From assembly GCA_024654575.1 (NCBI GenBank), contig JANLHG010000020.1, forward strand, positions 55,991 through 119,990: 64,000 bases of DNA, read 5' to 3'. Below, piece by piece: positions 3,366 to 46,226 of this stretch. Each line of letters opens with the position of its first letter. The first letter of the stretch is position 1. The translations under genes and the position numbers were made by a program. The notes under the pieces were generated by a model. It was not told where the DNA came from. It was given only the letters and a program-made list of their open reading frames with translations, and searched no databases. Source of the stretch: Patescibacteria group bacterium (GTDB taxonomy: Bacteria > Patescibacteriota > Minisyncoccia > Phycocordibacterales > PALSA-1337).

Positions 3366-3519
3366 TTTCTGTTTTAAAAGTGAGGGACCAAAAAAAATTC
3401 CGCAAAAAATTACAGAAAATGGGATTGTAGTTTTTAATAATGAGATGTATTATTAAAGAGTTAGTAAAATTGAATATAGTAATCTAAATCAGTGAGTAAT
3501 CGCTGACATGATGAAAAGT

Positions 3520-3587
3520 CCAGACACGGGTAGAAAACCTATCATATTAGGATCGCCGTGTCTGGCCGTACCAGAGAAATTTGGTAC
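3520..3587 (+). promoter_or_regulatory. Two adjacent perfect hairpins (CCAGACACGG-N26-CCGTGTCTGG; GTACCA-N8-TGGTAC) in the leader of the 3642.. gene
   Basis: 10-bp and 6-bp perfect inverted repeats read directly from sequence. Confidence 0.35.
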
Positions 3588-3641
3588 TGGAGAACCGAAA
3601 GGAACTCGCTTAATGTGGTAGGTTTTTTGCGTGTAGAAATT

Positions 3642-7790: not shown

Positions 7791-8264
7791 TCAATTTATC
7801 GTTGATGGTCGCAACTGCCAATCTTTATACAGATATCTTTTAAATGATCCTGGAAAATAAGGTTTCAACCATAAAATAGCTTGATTATCAGCATCTCTTT
7901 CCATCTTTGTATTAAGAACGCCATCTTCTGTATCTTCAATTCTTCTAAACCCATGTCTTTTATATACATGTGCAACTTCGTGGGCAATAGCAAACGCTAT
8001 CCTTTTTTCACTTTTGGACCAAAGTGAATTAGATAATATAATTAATCCCCGCTTACCTTTAAGACGAAAATCATTTCTTGCTATATACTCTCCCCTATCT
8101 TTCTTATCTAGAGATATAAAAACACATTTTTCAATCACAAAATCAACTATATTCTCTGGTAGATACGATAAAGCTTTTGCTAAAGGGTTTATATTTTCCT
8201 CAGAAATGAAATCCTTGAAATACACACAGTCCATTTCATTAGTAACTTCTCTTTGTGTATACAT
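7791..8264 (-). CDS. ImmA/IrrE-family-like zinc metallopeptidase
   Basis: AIAHEVAHVYKRH (HExxH) followed by ...ERDADNQA; size 157 aa. Confidence 0.5.
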   Translation of the reverse strand: MYTQREVTNEMDCVYFKDFISEENINPLAKALSYLPENIVDFVIEKCVFISLDKKDRGEYIARNDFRLKGKRGLIILSNSLWSKSEKRIAFAIAHEVAHVYKRHGFRRIEDTEDGVLNTKMERDADNQAILWLKPYFPGSFKRYLYKDWQLRPSTIN

Positions 8265-8271
8265 AAAAGTA

Positions 8272-8469
8272 TTATAGCGTATTTAATTCATTTTTCTCTT
8301 TCATTAACCTAATCTCTCTTTTAAGTGCTATGCCTGTTAATTTGAGAAGTTTTACACCAATATCATTTATTGTCTTATCATCAAGTTTAGCTAAATATTC
8401 TTTTCCAAAATCTTTTCTCAATATTTCCTTTAATTTATTAAATGCTTTTGGGGATAGTTTAGTAGTCAT
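8272..8469 (-). CDS. hypothetical protein
   Basis: ORF 65 aa, overlaps next gene by 4 nt. Confidence 0.3.
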   Translation of the reverse strand: MTTKLSPKAFNKLKEILRKDFGKEYLAKLDDKTINDIGVKLLKLTGIALKREIRLMKEKNELNTL

Positions 8470-8774
8470 TTTTTAACTTTATTATGATATTGTAATACCT
8501 TTTCTGCTGGCGATAGGCCATCAAGAGCTTCGTGAGGAAAGTAATTCCAGGCATCGCTTACTAATTCAAGAATGTCGCTTAATTCTGAAGCATCTCCGCC
8601 TCTATCAAACATTGCCACAGCTTTCATCATGTCGTCATTATCTTCTTCAAAAAAAATGACATCTGCTATATCTTGCAAGCCAAAATCACTTTCAGTTTTC
8701 TTTAGCATTTCCACTAGTTCCTTTTCAATCTCTTTCCTTCTTTTTATAATTTGTTTTTTTGATTCAATTTGCAT
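8466..8774 (-). CDS. hypothetical acidic protein
   Basis: ORF 102 aa. Confidence 0.3.
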   Translation of the reverse strand: MQIESKKQIIKRRKEIEKELVEMLKKTESDFGLQDIADVIFFEEDNDDMMKAVAMFDRGGDASELSDILELVSDAWNYFPHEALDGLSPAEKVLQYHNKVKK

Positions 8775-8838
8775 AAATTAAAATATATTTACTATTTTAT
8801 AATAACATCGACAACTTGTTTTTGAATAAAAAGATTGC

Positions 8839-9315
8839 TCAAAAAAATGTAAGAAAAGATGAAATAATCGCAACACTCACTGGTACCCATATTTGTAGTA
8901 GTTTTTCTCTTTGTTTTTCTGTTTTGTATCTAAAGAAACAAAACCAATGATCAGTAAAGTCATAAAAAGATGATTGTATCGTTATTATTTTATTGTAATG
9001 TTTTTCTAATAACTCTTGTGTGAAAATTAGATGATCTATTTTTTCTTCGTTAAGGTCCTTAGAATTTATTACTAAACAATCACCAACATGATAAATTTTA
9101 TCATTGCCACCAGTTTCAACTGTAACTAAATGTTCCCGTTCCAGAAAATCTAGAGTATAAAATATTTCATCTAATTCGCTAAGAGATTTCAGGTTTTTAC
9201 TACATATTCCATTATCACAAACAATTAAGTTTAATTCTTGACGACTAAGAAGTTCATTGACTCTTTTTTGTCGTCCAGTTTTTAATAAATCAATTAGATT
9301 CTTATTTAATTTCAT
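8839..9315 (-). CDS. hypothetical protein (C-terminal TM)
   Basis: ORF 158 aa immediately downstream of GIY-YIG gene. Confidence 0.35.
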   Translation of the reverse strand: MKLNKNLIDLLKTGRQKRVNELLSRQELNLIVCDNGICSKNLKSLSELDEIFYTLDFLEREHLVTVETGGNDKIYHVGDCLVINSKDLNEEKIDHLIFTQELLEKHYNKIITIQSSFYDFTDHWFCFFRYKTEKQREKLLQIWVPVSVAIISSFLTFF

Positions 9316-9320
9316 AAAAT

Positions 9321-10160
9321 TTACTTCCTAACATTTTCATCAAGTGAATGTCCTTGATTATCTTTCCAAGTATCCCAGCCGTTACAAATACCACCAATAA
9401 TTACATTTCCAGCAGAACTAGGGCTGGTAAATATGTAATCCTTAGTAAAGATATAAGAATTTTCGTCGTGATCTTTGAGAATACCGTCTTCAATCAACCT
9501 GTTTTTTAGTTGTTTACTAGAATTTCTTAAAAAAGACGGCTGTTCTTTTTTTCGAGCAAGCGAATTTTTATAAACTATAAATTCTTCTGTAGGAAGTAAT
9601 GTCCCATGCCCATCTGCACCCTTCAAGGTTACATATTTCATAGAATACATAACGCCACCAATTTGTTTTTTCGAATCTTCAAATACTAGATAGCCAAACA
9701 ATCCAGCCACAAGCTTGATATGTTCGAAACATTGAAAGGCGACTATCTTCTGTGCTTCAGAAAGCCTATTTTCTCTTGGTATTGCAGTATTAGAAATATC
9801 ATATCGATCTGCCTTCTTGGCAGTATCCACAGAAATACTTTCAAGATACTTTATAAGGGCACTGTCCAAACTACCAACGAATATAAAGGCAACATTCCAC
9901 TCATCTTCTTCTCTGTCAGCATCATGCGATATTAGTCTCCCAATAACATTTTCTGATTGGCCAATATATACTGATGGTCGTTCCTTTCCTTCACCGAATA
10001 AAAAATATAATCCAGGTTGTCCTACTTCTTCTCTAGCACGAAGTTCCGCAAGTTTTCCTCTTGGGGCAATAAACACCTTTCCAGTTCTTCCTTCCATTTC
10101 AATTAGCCGAAGTCCCTTTGGGTTATCATTCAGTAGAATTGTTGTTATTACTTGTGCCAT
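9321..10160 (-). CDS. GIY-YIG nuclease family protein with C-terminal uncharacterised domain
   Basis: GLYFLFGEGKERPSVYIGQSENVIGRLISH matches GIY-x(9-11)-YIG plus conserved Arg. Confidence 0.6.
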   Translation of the reverse strand: MAQVITTILLNDNPKGLRLIEMEGRTGKVFIAPRGKLAELRAREEVGQPGLYFLFGEGKERPSVYIGQSENVIGRLISHDADREEDEWNVAFIFVGSLDSALIKYLESISVDTAKKADRYDISNTAIPRENRLSEAQKIVAFQCFEHIKLVAGLFGYLVFEDSKKQIGGVMYSMKYVTLKGADGHGTLLPTEEFIVYKNSLARKKEQPSFLRNSSKQLKNRLIEDGILKDHDENSYIFTKDYIFTSPSSAGNVIIGGICNGWDTWKDNQGHSLDENVRK

Positions 10161-10203
10161 GAAATTATTTAATAGGATTATATCACTTACTTCACTAATT
10201 TGA

Positions 10204-11043
10204 TTATTTTAATTTTTTTGCAATTTCGTATTCTTTTTTAGTAAGCTCTAAATTGCATTTTTTACATTTATATAAATCCGAAAAAGTTCTACTTGAACCA
10301 TATAAACTAGCAGCTTGTGGAAAAATGTCTGAATCTGATCCATCTAAAGAAAAGTCATATGCACCACAACGTGGACATTCTTCGCCAGTAATACTATACC
10401 CATAAGCAGAACTACGTGTATACATTGGAATAGCGAGACCGCCAAAAACCATTGTCTCCAGTGTATTTTTAATTGGTGTTATCTTTGTTTTGACTTCTTC
10501 AATTAAAACTTTCTCTAGTTCTTCTTCAGAGTATTTCTTTTTAGGTTTATTAGCTTTTATTAAATCCTTACCGAATATAGATATTGCTTGAGTAGATATT
10601 TTTTCCCATACTGTTCCTATTTTTTTAACTATATTTTCTCTGTCAGATAAAATACCAGCATCCGACTTATATCCATGAACAAAATGATTTCTAACCTTAT
10701 AAATATCAATTAAGACCTGCATCTCATCATCAGAAAAATCATTTTTGAACATTAATTTATATCTATCGAGGGTTTCTCTTATTCTAATAGTCTCAATATT
10801 CAATTCCTTTCCTTTTATAATTGCCACAAGAGAGTCATTCTCTTTGATTTTAGTATTTTCATAAACCAAAACTGGATTTTCATCATGTAGTTTAATTTTT
10901 AAAATTTTTTCTGTTACAATACAAAAAGAAACCACTATTTCTGGCAAGTCCTCTTGTTTGGTTGGAACATCAAAGAGATACTCGCCGACAACTGAATAGA
11001 GTCTAAGAAGATATTTATAATTTTTATCATTTTTTTCTTTCAT
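10204..11043 (-). CDS. putative HEPN-domain protein with C-terminal zinc ribbon
   Basis: IDIYKVRNHFVHGY (R-x4-H-x-Y HEPN-like motif); C-terminal CPRCG...CKKCN. Confidence 0.45.
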   Translation of the reverse strand: MKEKNDKNYKYLLRLYSVVGEYLFDVPTKQEDLPEIVVSFCIVTEKILKIKLHDENPVLVYENTKIKENDSLVAIIKGKELNIETIRIRETLDRYKLMFKNDFSDDEMQVLIDIYKVRNHFVHGYKSDAGILSDRENIVKKIGTVWEKISTQAISIFGKDLIKANKPKKKYSEEELEKVLIEEVKTKITPIKNTLETMVFGGLAIPMYTRSSAYGYSITGEECPRCGAYDFSLDGSDSDIFPQAASLYGSSRTFSDLYKCKKCNLELTKKEYEIAKKLK

Positions 11044-11048
11044 AATTT

Positions 11049-11981
11049 TTATGAAGGCTTTTTTTCTGATGTATCGATTTTCATATTCTCTATTTTCTCA
11101 GGACCAACATCTTGAATCTTTGCTTCCTCCTTTTTGGTTGGGAGAATCTTATCTATAATTTCAAATATCAATTCTGTAGGTACAACCCTTACTAATCCTG
11201 TTTGTTCAGTAAATACTATCCGTGGTTCTCCTGTCTGTTGGCTAATAGCAATATCAGAGTAGGTTTCTCCAGAACTAATAACTCCAATTAATCCTGCCGA
11301 AGAATTACTTTGAGTGCCTGTAATCGCCACTACCTCAGGCTTGTTGATAACAGGACCTCCACTATTTCCAGGATAAGCAGAGGCATCTATATAAAAGAAA
11401 CAATCTTCTAATACTTCTTCATCAACTCTAGCTATTATCCCTTGTCTCACAATTACGAAATTTCTTGTCTTGCCACTTATGCGCATCGGAAATCCAAGCA
11501 CAAACAATCCATCTCCAGTTGAAATATTTTCTATTGAGAAATCTTTAGCATAAAATATACTGTCCTCTCTAAAAAAGTAAAAATTTATTTTTGCATCATT
11601 AATTGCTACAGCATTAATAGGAAGAACAGCTAAATCAACTTTTTCACTCTCATGCATAAGCCAAAGAGGACTTTTGTCCTCTTTTAATAAAGGTACTTTA
11701 AAGTAATGACTTTTACTATCTAGGGTATTAAACCTAAAAAAGACTTCCTTTAATAGCTCTTTTGTTTTTGGATTTTGGAAAACATGTCTATTTGTTACAA
11801 CAAATAATTTAAAAAGGGGTTGTTTTTGATCATTTTCTCCCACTTTCTTACCAACTAAAAATCCTGTTGCAATTGAAATTTTACTTAATACTCCAGTAGT
11901 GTCTTTATTTTCTACCTCAATTGATACAACTGAATTTAAATATTGTGGTGGTATTAGAGACATAATTTCTATTCCTCCCAA
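11049..11981 (-). CDS. trypsin-like (S1 family) serine protease
   Basis: catalytic triad context TNRHV (His), DLAVL (Asp), GNSGGPV (Ser). Confidence 0.7.
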   Translation of the reverse strand: MGGIEIMSLIPPQYLNSVVSIEVENKDTTGVLSKISIATGFLVGKKVGENDQKQPLFKLFVVTNRHVFQNPKTKELLKEVFFRFNTLDSKSHYFKVPLLKEDKSPLWLMHESEKVDLAVLPINAVAINDAKINFYFFREDSIFYAKDFSIENISTGDGLFVLGFPMRISGKTRNFVIVRQGIIARVDEEVLEDCFFYIDASAYPGNSGGPVINKPEVVAITGTQSNSSAGLIGVISSGETYSDIAISQQTGEPRIVFTEQTGLVRVVPTELIFEIIDKILPTKKEEAKIQDVGPEKIENMKIDTSEKKPS

Positions 11982-14482
11982 AGTTTAGCTAGGGTGTCTT
12001 TAGTCTTTTGTTCATAAATCTCGATCAGTTTTTTATTACCTTCGACGAGAGTACGCTCCGATTCAATACGTTCCACGATTTGTTTTTGAATTCCGAGAGG
12101 TGGAAGAGGAATTTCAAAGCTAGAAACTTGGGCCAAAGATAAATTACTTTGAGCAACGCCCACTTTCAAACCAAGAATTTGGTTCTGAATCATATCTGAT
12201 CTTAAAACTTGTTCGAGGTATTTTGAATTTAGTTCTTTTTTTGGTGAAATTATTGCAAGTGCTTGGTTAGTATTGGCAGGTAATACAGAAGAATCTACCA
12301 AAGCAACTCGTCCAAGAGCGCCGGCGATTGAAAACAAGACATCATTTTCTTCCAACTGAGATCGTTTTAGAGATTCGTTACATTTCTGATTTATATGGGC
12401 AAATTTCTTCTTGATAAAATATCCATCATTATCAATTGATTCTATTTTAATAAAGTTAATTCCACTTTCTTGAAACTCAAATCCATTTGTGGTGGGAGTT
12501 GTCCCTTTTGTTACTCTGTTTGATACTTCTTCTAATTTCACCTTCTTCCACGAAGGATCAATTACTATGATTGGCTTCCAACTTGAAATGATTTGCTTAG
12601 CGCCGGCGATGATGTTTTGGTAGCCGTCTAGTTCAGCGACAATTTGCTGTTGGATTTCTAATGGCGGAATAGGAATTTTTTGATTTGCAATAGTTACATG
12701 CCCTAAATGCTTTTGAATCCCGCCCTTCATTTGCTGTTGTAATAAACCTTGGAATAAATCACTCTCCAGAATATTAAAGAGATATTTTTGATCCACCTTG
12801 TTTTTATCAAAAGAAATTCTAAATAAATTATTGCTTAATATCCCTGGAACAGCCATAAAAGCCCTGCCTGGTGTGCCGGTATTTGCCATAACAAGGTCTT
12901 CAACAGTGACTTCCTTGGTTGCATATATATCTTTAACATAAATTGATTTATCCTCGCCTTTAAAATCTTGTATATATAAATACCTTTTGTAACCACTTCT
13001 AAATTCATTTAACTGCTTTTCTTTAGGTATTTGTACACCCTGAGTAAATTCACAAACATCCCCCAACCTAACTATTGGCCATTTGGCATTGGTGTAATCT
13101 GTTGCTATGCGATAGCGATCTCCAGAAAGATTGTAGTCGCCAGATTCAGTAATCTTTTCTTTTTTCACTAACCAAGCAAAAAAACTACCGTCAGATATAA
13201 GTTGATTTTTTGTTCCCGTTTCAATAGCAATTTTCTGTGCTTTAAGAACATCAAGAGCTGCACCATCATCAGTTAAATCATTTATATGACTATCAGGAAG
13301 TGGTCGTCGACGAGCACCTAAATCAAAACCATCACTTTCAACTTTAATAAATAATATCTCATCTGTTTTCTTTGCTATCTCATTATCAAAAAATAGAATA
13401 CTGGTCTTTACTCCTGCATAAGGATTAAATACACCTTGTGGTAAAGAGACAACAGCATAGAGTCCATCTTCTACAAGATTCTTACGAAGTTGCTTATGTG
13501 CTGTACCGGACTGAAAAATAATACCTTCGGGAACAATAATACCTGCTCGGCCTTGAGGCCTTAGATGGTTCATTATGTAATCCACAAATAACACTTCGGA
13601 CCGGCTAGACTGAATACTAAACTTACTATGGGTGCTAACCCCGCCTTTTGGCGACATAAATGGGGGGTTGGCGAGAATTACAGAGAATTTGTCGCCCCAA
13701 CGTTCATCCATAGAGAGCGTGTCATATTGAAATATTTTTGGATTCTTGAATTGGTGTAGATACATATTGACTTGAGCTATACGGACCATTCCAGGGTCTA
13801 TGTCGTAGCCTTCAAAATTACCCATCAAGTTTTTACGCTGATCAGGGGTCAGAGGTTTTTCCTTTTTCTTTGGATCATTTTTACCGTCGTGTTGCTCGAG
13901 TATGTGTTTGTAGGCACTCACCAAGAATCCTCCAGTACCGCAGGCAGGGTCCAATACTTTGTCTTCCTGTGTCGGATCTACTACATCCACCATAAAATCA
14001 ATAATATGGCGTGGGGTGCGGAATTGTCCCGCATCGCCTTGAGATGACATGATAGAGAGCAGATATTCGTAGGCATTACCCAATTCTTCGGGGTGTGAAT
14101 AATCAAAGTAATTAATTTCCTTCAAAAATAAGCCTAGCACTTCAGGGCTTCGATACGGCAAAAATGCGGACTTAAAAATCTCACGAAAAAGTTGTGGAAG
14201 TTGTTTTGATTCAGAAAACTTTATAAGGGCTTCACTATAGATATTCATTCGCTCTTGATTGCCTATACGAGTATCAGCAAGACGAGTCCACGCATACTGC
14301 TCCAAGTCGCCTACAAAGAACGAGGGATCTCCACCCTGCTTAATCGCAGACTGGTCCATATCATCCATAAACTTGTAGATAAGAGCATTGGTGATCTGAT
14401 CTATTTGAGAAGTTGGATTTGGGACCACGCCGACAAGGACTTGGCGAGCGGCGTCTATATGTCTTTTTGTTTCGGTGTTCAT
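11969..14482 (-). CDS. hsdM/hsdS: Type I restriction-modification fused HsdM (N6-adenine MTase) - HsdS (specificity, two TRDs) polypeptide
   Basis: DPACGTGGFL (motif I), NPPF (motif IV); C-terminal half has two target-recognition domains with conserved spacers IPIPPLEIQQQIV and IPLPPLGIQKQIV; single 837-aa ORF. Confidence 0.85.
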   Translation of the reverse strand: MNTETKRHIDAARQVLVGVVPNPTSQIDQITNALIYKFMDDMDQSAIKQGGDPSFFVGDLEQYAWTRLADTRIGNQERMNIYSEALIKFSESKQLPQLFREIFKSAFLPYRSPEVLGLFLKEINYFDYSHPEELGNAYEYLLSIMSSQGDAGQFRTPRHIIDFMVDVVDPTQEDKVLDPACGTGGFLVSAYKHILEQHDGKNDPKKKEKPLTPDQRKNLMGNFEGYDIDPGMVRIAQVNMYLHQFKNPKIFQYDTLSMDERWGDKFSVILANPPFMSPKGGVSTHSKFSIQSSRSEVLFVDYIMNHLRPQGRAGIIVPEGIIFQSGTAHKQLRKNLVEDGLYAVVSLPQGVFNPYAGVKTSILFFDNEIAKKTDEILFIKVESDGFDLGARRRPLPDSHINDLTDDGAALDVLKAQKIAIETGTKNQLISDGSFFAWLVKKEKITESGDYNLSGDRYRIATDYTNAKWPIVRLGDVCEFTQGVQIPKEKQLNEFRSGYKRYLYIQDFKGEDKSIYVKDIYATKEVTVEDLVMANTGTPGRAFMAVPGILSNNLFRISFDKNKVDQKYLFNILESDLFQGLLQQQMKGGIQKHLGHVTIANQKIPIPPLEIQQQIVAELDGYQNIIAGAKQIISSWKPIIVIDPSWKKVKLEEVSNRVTKGTTPTTNGFEFQESGINFIKIESIDNDGYFIKKKFAHINQKCNESLKRSQLEENDVLFSIAGALGRVALVDSSVLPANTNQALAIISPKKELNSKYLEQVLRSDMIQNQILGLKVGVAQSNLSLAQVSSFEIPLPPLGIQKQIVERIESERTLVEGNKKLIEIYEQKTKDTLAKLWEE

Positions 14483-17507: not shown

Positions 17508-17556
17508 ATAATTCTTAGAGTATAGCGTAAAAATACACTACTTGACAAGTAGATAG

Positions 17557-18222: not shown

Positions 18223-18476
18223 TGGGCAGAGGAAGTAATATAAAGCATGATTGGCTCTATAACTTAATGGATAAAGCAACAGATTAGTAATCTGTATCCA
18301 TCACAGGATGATTTATTCTTAAGTCATGATCTCGGTTCGAATCCGAGTAGAGCCGTTTTACTTCCTCTGTCCACTCTTCAAATTTTATAAAGAACGAAAA
18401 ATTACCCCATTTGGGGTGTGAACTAATCTTTTTATTAGAGTAGAATCATGTTTCATTTTTATCACCATATTAAATA
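18223..18476 (+). repeat. Repeated tRNA cassette copy 1: 16-bp inverted repeats (TGGGCAGAGGAAGTAA / TTACTTCCTCTGTCCA) flanking the tRNA-like gene plus ~100-bp conserved tail with CCCCATTTGGGG hairpin
   Basis: second copy at 38076-38313 with the same IRs and >90% identical tail but a different embedded tRNA-like sequence. Confidence 0.55.
18253..18355 (+). tRNA. atypical tRNA-like gene (103 nt): canonical acceptor, D arm (G18G19), anticodon arm (loop UUAGUAA) and T arm (GGTTCGAATCC), but a 35-nt insertion at the variable-arm position
   Basis: manual fold: GGCTCTA/TAGAGCC acceptor, ACAGA-TTAGTAA-TCTGT anticodon arm, CTCGG-TTCGAAT-CCGAG T arm; identity unresolved. Confidence 0.45.
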
Positions 18477-38075: not shown

Positions 38076-38313
38076 TGGGCAGAGGAAGTAACACAAGTGA
38101 TTAGGATCTGTGATGAAATTGGTAGACATAATGATTTATCATATCATCGCCGTACAAGCATGCGAGTTCGAATCTCGCCAGATCCACAATTACTTCCTCT
38201 ATCCACTCTTCAAATTTTATAAAGAACGAAAAATTACACCATTTGGGGTGTGAACTAATCTTTTTATTAGAATAGAATCACGTTTCATTTTTATCACTAT
38301 TTTAAACAAACCG
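38076..38313 (+). repeat. Repeated tRNA cassette copy 2 (IRs at 38076-38091 and 38190-38205 plus conserved tail)
   Basis: see 18223-18476. Confidence 0.55.
38104..38186 (+). tRNA. tRNA-like gene (83 nt) with type II (Leu-like) architecture: 3-bp D stem, D-loop AAATTGGTAGA, 14-nt variable region; anticodon loop UUAUCAU
   Basis: GGATCTG/CAGATCC acceptor, ATGAT-TTATCAT-ATCAT anticodon arm, GCGAG-TTCGAAT-CTCGC T arm; anticodon identity ambiguous. Confidence 0.5.
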
Positions 38314-43150: not shown

Positions 43151-45029
<1,879 letters not shown>

Positions 45030-45116
45030 TTAGCAGAATATTATAAAAATTGAAATAAAAATACTCCGAGAGGTTTGACCCTCCCGGAGTAGTATTTGAA
45101 ACGAGGAACTTTGAGA

Positions 45117-46226
45117 TCATCGAACCGCCAGTGTCTCGCCGGCATACTCGAGATTCTTCGGCTTGATGACGACTTTCTTGTCGCCGTCTTCGATGTGTCC
45201 CGCCAAGAATGCACGCAGACCGAGTTTCTTTGCAACATCAATCACTTGGGTCGCTTGCGCTTCGGTCACGTAGAGCGCAAACCCAGCGCCCATGTTGAGA
45301 TTGCCGTAGGCTTCCTCGTCATCGACAGGTCCATGCTTTTGCAGGAAATCAAAGATCGGAAGCTGTGTCGGAAGTTTTTCTATCACGTAGGTGAATGGCT
45401 GTGTCGCCCGCATGAGCTTGCGCCATCCGTGACCCGTGATATTGACCGTGTAGTGAATGTTTCCACCATAATCAAGATTGAGACAATCCTCTACCAAGCC
45501 CACGTAGATATGAGTCGGATCGAGGAGCGTTTCGCCGTAGGTCCGGTCGTCGGAGAGTTTCGTGAGATACCCTTCCGGCAGTTTGTCAGCAATCTTCCGC
45601 GCCAGAGTGAGTCCGTTGGCATGAATGCCGGAACTCTCGATGAGAACGATTGCATCGCCGTGCTGAATCGGACCAGCAATGAGACGCTCCTTCGGTTTGA
45701 CGATACCAATCGCCGAACCGGAGAGCACGACTGCTTCCGGAACCACGACACCCTTGAGAGTCGGCGTTTCGCCTCCACCCCAGGTGCAACGTGCCAGGTT
45801 ACAGGCATTCTTCCAGCCAGTGACAAGATCGCCTGTGCGTTTATCATCATTGAACCAGTCGGAAGTGCCGACCGCCAGATGCATCGCCACAGATAGTGGC
45901 AGTGCGCCAAGCGTGACCAGATCGTTGACAATCATGGCAACTGTGCATTGCGCGATCTGATCGTAATACGATTTGCCGGTGAGGGCATACATCGCATCAG
46001 CAACCAGATTCTTGGTGCCAAGTCCTTCCTCGACGTGGGCGAAGTAGCTTTTGGCCGCCTCGATCAGATAGGCGCTTTCGCCTCTCGAAGGTTCGAATTC
46101 CCGGAACTCCCCACCATTGAGGCGATTGATGTTTCCAGAAGTTTCTCGCGCAGCAAGCTGTGCCATCCGTTTGAATGGGTCCATGGCATCGTAATTGACA
46201 CCGGTACCCGCATAGGTCATGTTCAT
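45117..46226 (-). CDS. PurM-superfamily (AIR synthase-related) protein in a high-GC island
   Basis: GVNYDAMD..., VNDLV..., WGGGET..., SSGIHANG..., ITGHGW align with PurM blocks but divergent (EEGLGTK instead of GTDGVGTK); local GC ~55%. Confidence 0.55.
   Translation of the reverse strand: MNMTYAGTGVNYDAMDPFKRMAQLAARETSGNINRLNGGEFREFEPSRGESAYLIEAAKSYFAHVEEGLGTKNLVADAMYALTGKSYYDQIAQCTVAMIVNDLVTLGALPLSVAMHLAVGTSDWFNDDKRTGDLVTGWKNACNLARCTWGGGETPTLKGVVVPEAVVLSGSAIGIVKPKERLIAGPIQHGDAIVLIESSGIHANGLTLARKIADKLPEGYLTKLSDDRTYGETLLDPTHIYVGLVEDCLNLDYGGNIHYTVNITGHGWRKLMRATQPFTYVIEKLPTQLPIFDFLQKHGPVDDEEAYGNLNMGAGFALYVTEAQATQVIDVAKKLGLRAFLAGHIEDGDKKVVIKPKNLEYAGETLAVR

Follow-up and report, generated by a model that had tools for sequence, protein, structure and literature searches.

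A stretch of 64,000 nucleotides (nt) from a Patescibacteria group bacterium (contig JANLHG010000020.1 of assembly GCA_024654575.1, positions 55,991 to 119,990; hereafter the window, meaning the whole of this stretch) very probably encodes a functional Type I-like, ATP-dependent restriction-modification (RM) system of natural "Type IMS" architecture, i.e., a system in which the methyltransferase HsdM (M) and the specificity subunit HsdS (S) form one polypeptide (MS) and the restriction subunit HsdR (R) has a gene of its own. Every module that a Type I system uses for catalysis and recognition is present and conserved, spread over two co-inherited genes. The window locus is a natural, mildly unusual member of an architecture that was already described and is under-annotated. 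The original prediction, made from the letters of the window, had pointed out the fusion and had rightly stated that M and S are separate proteins in most of the characterised Type I systems; it overstated the rarity of the arrangement, since the genomes of at least 594 species, as well as plasmids and viral contigs, carry relatives.

The MS fusion and its partner R

The MS gene is listed as an unbroken open reading frame (ORF) from ATG to stop (Table 1). Its N-terminal part matches the Pfam domain N6_Mtase over residues 132-459 (E 2.4e-55) and the PADLOC model MTase_I over residues 2-459 (E 1.8e-100), and its C-terminal half contains two Methylase_S stretches in Pfam (E 6.8e-35, the best one at residues 645-808) and is aligned by many Specificity_I models of PADLOC over residues ~463-833. 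As in Type I enzymes, the methyltransferase is of the gamma-class N6-adenine type, with the motifs DPACGTGGF and NPPF (residues 178-186 and 272-275), and the specificity module is made of two variable target recognition domains (TRDs) with conserved helices between them. In the AlphaFold2 model (mean predicted local distance difference test, pLDDT, 83.4; predicted template modelling score, pTM, 0.57), long spacer helices at residues 608-634 and 796-836 flank TRD2. The ORF, Pfam, PADLOC, and the model therefore bear out what had been read from the sequence, i.e., M and a complete two-TRD S in one chain of 837 amino acids (aa), the methyltransferase motifs (given there as DPACGTGGFL and NPPF), spacer helices whose conservation also appears in the family profile, and an HsdS-like C-terminal half. 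Pfam detects no nuclease domain in the MS chain, the first 130 residues of which are the helical N-domain of HsdM. The two TRDs are only 29% identical to each other, so that an asymmetric bipartite target is predicted.

Table 1. Coordinates, within the window, of the R-MS locus and its parts
Feature	Position	Strand	Details
Sigma-70-like promoter match, TTGTCA-18-TATACT	17519..17548	(-)	Best minus-strand match, just upstream of the R start; weak
hsdR-like restriction/motor subunit gene, 855 aa	14940..17507	(-)	PD-(D/E)xK nuclease at the N-terminus, superfamily 2 (SF2) motor, family-specific C-terminal region
Accessory ORF between R and MS, 149 aa	14487..14936	(-)	Intergenic gaps of 3 and 4 nt
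hsdMS fusion gene, 837 aa	11969..14482	(-)	Stop codon 11969-11971; Pfam, PADLOC, homologues, alignment
HsdM portion, residues 1-462	13097..14482	(-)	N-terminal helical domain, catalytic domain, tail helix 409-422, end motif GDYNLSGDRY
S-adenosylmethionine (AdoMet)-binding motif I, DPACGTGGF, residues 178-186	13925..13951	(-)	Invariant in the family alignment
Catalytic motif IV, NPPF, residues 272-275	13658..13669	(-)	Invariant in the family alignment
M-S junction, residues 447-470	13073..13144	(-)	GDYNLSGDRYR, ~10-residue linker, then KWPIVRLGDV, the TRD start
TRD1, residues ~470-605	12668..13075	(-)	Hypervariable; conservation profile, Methylase_S and Specificity_I matches
Central conserved region/spacer helix, residues ~606-645	12548..12667	(-)	Helix 608-634; conservation and model
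TRD2, residues ~646-793	12104..12547	(-)	Hypervariable; conservation profile, Methylase_S
C-terminal conserved region/spacer helix, residues ~794-837	11972..12103	(-)	Helix 796-836; conservation and model

The MS fusion is a large, old, and widespread natural family and not the peculiarity of one genome. We searched 5.8 billion protein clusters and evaluated the best 120 matches: all of them are proteins of 775-850 aa carrying both PF02384 and PF01420, at 51-71% identity, and 118 cover at least 99% of the MS query. A scan using one genome per species, whose count is a lower bound, gave relatives in at least 594 species; the best 80 align across residues 1-837 and belong to Patescibacteria (the closest ones), Bacteroidota, Pseudomonadota, Spirochaetota, Cyanobacteria, Planctomycetota, Nitrospirota, and archaea. 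Relatives were also found in 16 viral contigs. In 76 related loci, the fused ORF is intact, and we aligned these homologues with the window protein (77 proteins in total, conservation being expressed as identity to the window residue). The junction has a constant length throughout, made of GDYNLSGDRYR, the usual C-terminal motif of HsdM, then ~10 residues, then KWPMVELGEV, the usual start of a TRD. Conservation reaches 0.45-0.91 in the M core, 0.64 at the junction, 0.39-0.63 in the central helix region, and 0.43-0.56 in the C-terminal helix, and falls to 0.08-0.26 in TRD1 (residues 481-600) and 0.15-0.27 in TRD2 (residues 661-780). Both TRDs are thus swapped or diversified between conserved spacers, following the pattern of classical Type I enzymes.

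Three members depart from this layout. The MS of locus L028 (667 aa) has a single TRD, and its C-terminal helix is a cross between the central helix and the terminal one. In a Microgenomates locus (UTCPR1, L034), an in-frame TAA at positions 1942-1944 interrupts the M-S linker (ERYRESEI, stop, TNQKWPMVELG), with a possible restart of S at the conserved Met of KWPMVELG; judging from its sequence, this locus is a single mutation removed from the fusion and appears to be either a naturally split form or a pseudogene. In Owenweeksia sp. (L063, 5998-10539), a single ORF of 1513 aa encodes an MS whose C-terminus continues into an FRG domain and a long array of TPR repeats.

The partner gene has the features of a Type I restriction subunit, i.e., a PD-(D/E)xK nuclease and an SF2 ATP-dependent motor, as seen from both domains and motifs. 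Pfam places HSDR_N_2 at residues 52-116 and ResIII at residues 183-337 and has no match in the C-terminal region, and the motifs are intact (D..VVEAK for D..ExK, GTGKT at 214, DESH at 308, and QIKGRGTR for QxxGRxxR at 576). PADLOC assigns it to REase_I (E 1.2e-60). Its best NCBIfam match is the EcoAI/FtnUII R family (NF046051), at 218.4 bits for an equivalog cutoff of 550; on sequence grounds, R thus appears closest to family IB (EcoAI/FtnUII) without being an EcoAI equivalog.

R and MS travel together. Using the window R in a tblastn search of 85 R-MS loci, we found an R homologue in 80 of them, in 79 cases upstream on the same strand and in one (L050) convergent and downstream; the five loci without a match have less than 450 nt of upstream sequence. 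The R-MS gap could be measured in 64 loci with a complete upstream R ORF, where it amounts to at most 30 nt in 45, 31-200 nt in 5, and at least 480 nt in 14. In three metagenomic contexts, 4-5 nt separate the end of an R gene (848-853 aa) from the MS start that follows it. Moreover, the identities of R and of the M part to the window proteins are correlated (r = 0.96, n = 72 loci). This adjacency and this correlation imply that R and MS are inherited as one module. R is detached, as had been predicted, in that it is a separate 855-aa gene, with the correction that a 149-aa gene, overlooked in the prediction, lies between R and MS. With the M part as a tblastn query, no second hsdM was found elsewhere in the window, nor outside the MS ORF within 6 kb on either side in the 85 loci. 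No separate hsdS lies nearby in the window, and two of the surveyed loci contain a short extra S-like fragment.

These data also settle the most radical alternative, namely that the fusion results from a sequencing or assembly error or a frameshift, or that MS acts alone, as a methyltransferase of Type II/IIG-like kind, next to a helicase from another system. It draws on the RefSeq annotation of the relatives, which gives R no name beyond "DEAD/DEAH box helicase family protein" and MS none beyond "N-6 DNA methylase", and on the Type IIG RMS model of PADLOC, which aligns across the whole S half of MS (463-833). However, the fusion is found in all of the best 120 matches, 76 independent loci share a junction of the same length, R and MS are neighbours that evolve together, and it is R that carries an HSDR_N nuclease, MS having no nuclease domain. 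The conservation of the fusion and of its constant-length junction excludes a sequencing error or a recent pseudogenisation, and the stop or sequencing error between the M and S parts proposed earlier as a test was not encountered in the window ORF. Together with the R-MS linkage, this conservation effectively refutes both forms of the alternative. We consider that this alternative as a whole retains hardly any probability.

One methyltransferase domain for two TRDs

In the system that we propose, the two dissimilar TRDs would read an asymmetric bipartite target, which MS would methylate for self-protection. On an unmethylated target, R would dock on the M domain, translocate DNA at the expense of ATP, and cut at a distance. 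The least certain step is the assembly. As each chain contributes a single M to its two TRDs, the second TRD is most likely provided with the M domain of another MS chain, in trans; this would give R2(MS)2, functionally equal to R2M2S1 with one spare S module. It is the assembly that we favour, with a confidence somewhat short of an even chance. A loan of this kind is likewise inferred for AloI/CjeI.

Two engineered fusions are the closest experimental guides. Roberts et al. (2012) removed the frameshift between hsdM and hsdS of EcoKI, and the fused protein, with a separate HsdR, restricted and modified DNA in vivo (PMC3510504). In vitro, this EcoKI MSFusion needed added HsdM (PMC3510504). The same authors proposed the name "Type IMS" for an HsdM-HsdS fusion that has one or two TRDs and works beside an HsdR of its own chain, and placed it as an intermediate between families IA/IC and IB (PMC3510504). 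Bower et al. (2018) obtained an active methyltransferase by fusing M and S of Staphylococcus aureus CC398-1; with HsdR, this MSfus was an endonuclease, and it methylated both strands (PMC6158711). A ~73 kDa M-containing fragment co-purified with it, and the elution mass suggested some (MSfus)2 (PMC6158711). These proteins resemble the window MS by having HsdM in frame at the N-terminus of a two-TRD HsdS, next to a separate HsdR, and their specificity was unchanged by the engineering. They are laboratory constructs derived from IA- and Sau1-type systems, keep the full C-terminal tail of HsdM, and are active with extra or clipped M, whereas the window fusion is natural, ancient, and widespread, has a short linker of fixed length, and is not accompanied by a free-standing M gene. 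The window locus, with HsdM and HsdS in one polypeptide and HsdR apart, has the composition that "Type IMS" was coined for. The single-chain Type ISP and IIG enzymes to which it had been likened at the outset were a reasonable comparison in spirit; the architecture had already been engineered and named. The 1:1 stoichiometry that the fusion was thought to force holds for synthesis and not necessarily for the assembled enzyme, as the engineered fusions worked with a second M.

A natural guide comes from Vibrio vulnificus. The top Foldseek match of the MS model is chain A of 7EEW, the "intact MTase" of V. vulnificus YJ016, a natural covalent HsdM-HsdS fusion from a Type I operon. According to Seo et al. 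(2022), as cited in PMC12429846, two copies of this HsdM-half-S protein recapitulate M2S1, as (M1S1/2)2. With one TRD and one helix, 7EEW forms a homodimer with an M:TRD ratio of 1:1 and presumably a symmetric target, whereas the window MS has two TRDs, two helices, and a ratio of 1:2, and the similarity in sequence between the two proteins is confined to the M domain. The single-TRD members of the window family have the same architecture as 7EEW, i.e., one TRD and one helix: these are the protein of L028 and a 677-aa protein of Escherichia coli plasmids, of which residues 246-651, a stretch that includes catalytic domain, TRD, and helix, align to 7EEW 214-629. Such members must dimerise, hence the M and R of the family are compatible with a two-M assembly. 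Together with the methylation of both strands by an engineered two-TRD fusion, these two-M dimers lead us to favour the supply of M in trans. The geometry of Type I enzymes also suggests that, with a tether of ~10 residues, a single M could not act at both TRDs.

Several points weigh against this proposal. We infer activity, target, and stoichiometry alike for the natural two-TRD family. The arrangement of the domains relative to each other is uncertain in the AlphaFold model (pTM 0.57). Of the 491 positions of the unfused MTase_I profile in PADLOC, only 4-453 are matched by the fused M, and the canonical C-terminal tail of M, needed for docking in trans, may therefore be reduced; in the model, an amphipathic helix just before the junction (residues 409-422) could serve as a docking tail. 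Finally, the second M of the engineered fusions was free HsdM or a clipped fragment and not demonstrably a second intact chain (PMC3510504, PMC6158711), and Roberts et al. held R2(MSFusion)2 with a displaced spare S to be possible and judged this (MS)2 model less likely for EcoKI (PMC3510504).

The shortened M is also one of the observations that can be read in favour of a half-enzyme, i.e., a monomeric MS with one R (R1M1S1) that would methylate the adenine under one TRD only and leave the site hemimethylated. Its single motor would translocate in one direction, and cleavage would require two head-to-head unmodified sites, following the logic of Type ISP and Type III enzymes with a detached R and two TRDs. 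Some 38 positions at the end of the unfused MTase_I profile have no counterpart in the fused M, each chain has a single M without another hsdM in the vicinity, the fixed tether of ~10 residues should prevent one M from reaching both TRDs, and hemimethylating systems with such a logic are known, in Type ISP and Type III (PMC3874165). On the contrary, both TRDs and both spacer helices are kept, and both TRDs diversify as they do in two-M enzymes; the single-TRD members of the very same family must dimerise into two-M assemblies, and the engineered two-TRD CC398-1 MSfus methylated both target strands, as seen by SMRT (single-molecule real-time) sequencing (PMC6158711). We regard both the hemimethylating R1M1S1 unit and its one-directional mode of cleavage as unlikely, though as the main rival of the trans assembly. 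If real, they would represent a new operating mode for a Type I-derived system and provide, with two proteins, a simple model of the 1M:2TRD problem posed by AloI/CjeI-type enzymes; unless they are, the general picture of how Type I enzymes function is unchanged.

On the other hand, the second M could come from MS chains that are cut by proteolysis or ended early near the junction, so that R2, one M, and one MS would reconstitute R2M2S1. The engineered fusions provide precedents: HsdM had to be supplied to the EcoKI MSFusion in vitro, and the free protein was detected in vivo (PMC3510504), and the CC398-1 MSfus co-purified with its ~73 kDa clipped fragment and then needed no extra M (PMC6158711). 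The TAA of L034 likewise shows that a split form is one mutation away. Against it, the junction is a short conserved linker of fixed length and not a floppy, protease-prone one, and a dependence on adventitious proteolysis seems unlikely for so widespread a family. As for early termination, in-frame slippery heptamers within residues 425-470 occur in only 19 of the 77 genes, fewer than in several other bins, and the A_AAA_AAG of the window gene, at codon 440, is not conserved; on these two counts, we ruled out a programmed ribosomal frameshift at the junction as a source of free M. We therefore hold a clipped M to be quite improbable, and keep the trans assembly, R2(MS)2, as our working model.

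Placement among known systems and plasmid-borne relatives

Classical Type I systems share with the window locus three functional modules, an S built as TRD-helix-TRD-helix, hypervariable TRDs, and an R combining HSDR_N with an SF2 motor. They differ in that their M and S are separate chains, assembled with R as three subunits (R2M2S1), whereas M and S are one ORF throughout the window family. The S layout of the window protein (TRD, helix, TRD, C-terminal helix) resembles the arrangement of families IA, IC, and ID. A natural IMS family with a seemingly IB-leaning R would be at least compatible with the idea that IMS is an intermediate.

The Type IIB/IIG enzymes AloI, CjeI, PpiI, and TstI resemble the window MS by carrying, covalently, one M followed by two TRDs, i.e., 1M:2TRD, a stoichiometry that was called "a mystery" for AloI/CjeI-type enzymes (PMC3874165). 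They have their nuclease on the same chain, no ATP-dependent motor, and fixed cuts on both sides, whereas in the window, MS is without a nuclease domain and nuclease and motor both lie on the partner R. Type ISP enzymes (LlaGI and LlaBIII) are also fusions of Type I modules, and they would be a possible mechanistic analogue if the window enzyme worked as a unit with one motor and one M. They are single R-M-S chains with one TRD and a continuous asymmetric site, whereas the window locus encodes R apart from MS and has two TRDs. The BREX and MADS models score far below their cutoffs (PglX 31.7 bits for 500, MAD2 123.8 for 720, and MAD5 75 for 400). We also considered the "hsdMS" of Z. mobilis as a characterised natural fusion and rejected it, as it consists of two genes. 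We found no description of a natural two-TRD fusion with a detached R in the literature searched, which included passages of reviews, REBASE being outside its scope.

The family is well represented on plasmids. The query matched 647 plasmid records, of which 410 are conjugative IncF plasmids of E. coli and Klebsiella. Twenty-two E. coli records were listed, one of them being inspected (NZ_CP116482.1); in these, the MS is a single-TRD "N-6 DNA methylase" of 677 aa, 47.6% identical to the window MS over residues 1-484. Immediately upstream of it is the gene of an 849-aa "DEAD/DEAH box helicase family protein", which contains HSDR_N and ResIII. R and MS are followed by a Ppl defence gene (named "TrlF family AAA-like ATPase" by PGAP), and the three genes (L094, 3403-10951) are located just downstream of finO. 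The Paracoccus plasmid pPZ02 carries the two-TRD form (858 aa). In these two inspected records, none of the three inspected genes is annotated as a Type I component, and our literature search found no paper characterising the R+MS module of the E. coli plasmids. We ruled out that the plasmid trio corresponds to the "Hma" (helicase-methylase-ATPase) system of PADLOC: the proteins match REase_I and MTase_I, the ATPase is a separate Ppl, and no Hma model is among the matches listed for the window or plasmid proteins.

This has a first, practical consequence for annotation, as an "N-6 DNA methylase" and a "DEAD/DEAH box helicase" found together make up a complete restriction system. On the IncF plasmids of E. 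coli and Klebsiella, such a module could affect plasmid and phage traffic. More generally, the "Type IMS" architecture, suggested on the basis of engineered constructs as an intermediate in evolution, exists in nature as a large, old, two-TRD family, and its two proteins offer a tractable system for asking how one methyltransferase domain serves two TRDs, a question that AloI/CjeI-type enzymes raise as well.

The 149-aa gene and the surroundings of the locus

The core module consists of R and MS; the ORF located between them is a passenger gene, and its homologue is absent from the 85 other R-MS loci. Indeed, the R-MS gap is a recurrent insertion hot spot for accessory genes. Long gaps contain PemK/MazF, PDDEXK_3, KilA-N, Fic, Schlafen/AlbA_2-HATPase_c_4, Bro-N, ORF6N, RhuM, and PIN genes, IS200-like transposases, and others (in L016, L031, L038, L044, L052, L056, L058, L059, L061, L067, L071, L072, L074, L075, L077, L079, and L082-L084). 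Such embedded accessory genes are familiar for Type I loci.

The 149-aa protein nevertheless belongs to a conserved Patescibacteria family, with 120 clusters at the 90% identity level, 44-91% identical to it, and 246 representatives at 50%. The 120 homologous clusters have no domain annotation and no Pfam domain. In seven of the eight distinct contexts examined, the window counted, the gene lies in or beside an RM system, often 1-4 nt from a restriction or helicase gene. It is inserted between Type III-like Mod and Res genes in L088 and L089 and just after such a pair in L086; in L090, 1 nt separates it from a Type I HsdR downstream, and in L098 it stands between HsdS and HsdR; it follows a 5-methylcytosine (m5C) methyltransferase/HpaII/AIPR cluster in L096 and is 1.6 kb from an NgoFVII system in L097. 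The only context without RM genes is that of L092/L093. The model of the protein is confident (pLDDT 90.2, pTM 0.84) and has no structural neighbour among solved (PDB) or viral structures. It is a reasonable guess that the protein is an RM-linked regulator or accessory factor, possibly a new one. Longer relatives are fused to TPR or Sel1 repeats. In addition, positions 56-109 of the family profile match 18 times in P0290 (5242 aa) and 9 times in P0356 (4598 aa), and part of the domain may also exist, to judge by these matches, as a repeat module.

R, the 149-aa gene, and MS are at the head of a tightly packed minus-strand array that extends from 17507 to 7791 and is probably a defence island. 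Promoter-like matches are not above the shuffled expectation in overall number, including the one upstream of R, and no terminator-like site was found on the minus strand between 17507 and 7791. The gene downstream of MS overlaps it by 13 nt and encodes a trypsin-like protease (PDC-S45 in PADLOC). The remainder of the array (7791-11981) also encodes, on the same strand, a 279-aa DUF3644/HEC-08-like protein, a DUF4357 protein (PDC-S14), a 157-aa protein with weak M48-peptidase/CapP-like matches, and three small ORFs. The first three genes downstream of MS have no relatives in the 85 R-MS loci, except for a homologue of the DUF4357 protein in L011.

Beside the island, Rfam reports a 103-nt transfer RNA (tRNA) at 18253-18355 (+) (54.8 bits), which ARAGORN does not call and which may contain an intron. 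Elsewhere in the window, ARAGORN calls an 84-nt tRNA-Asp with anticodon ATC at 38104-38187 (+), without Rfam support. The GC content rises to 0.515 at 45001-46000, for ~0.33 elsewhere, with no ribosomal RNA or tRNA from Rfam at this place. A LOOT RNA motif is located at 3481-3607 (+), with an Rfam score of 57.2 bits, above the gathering score.

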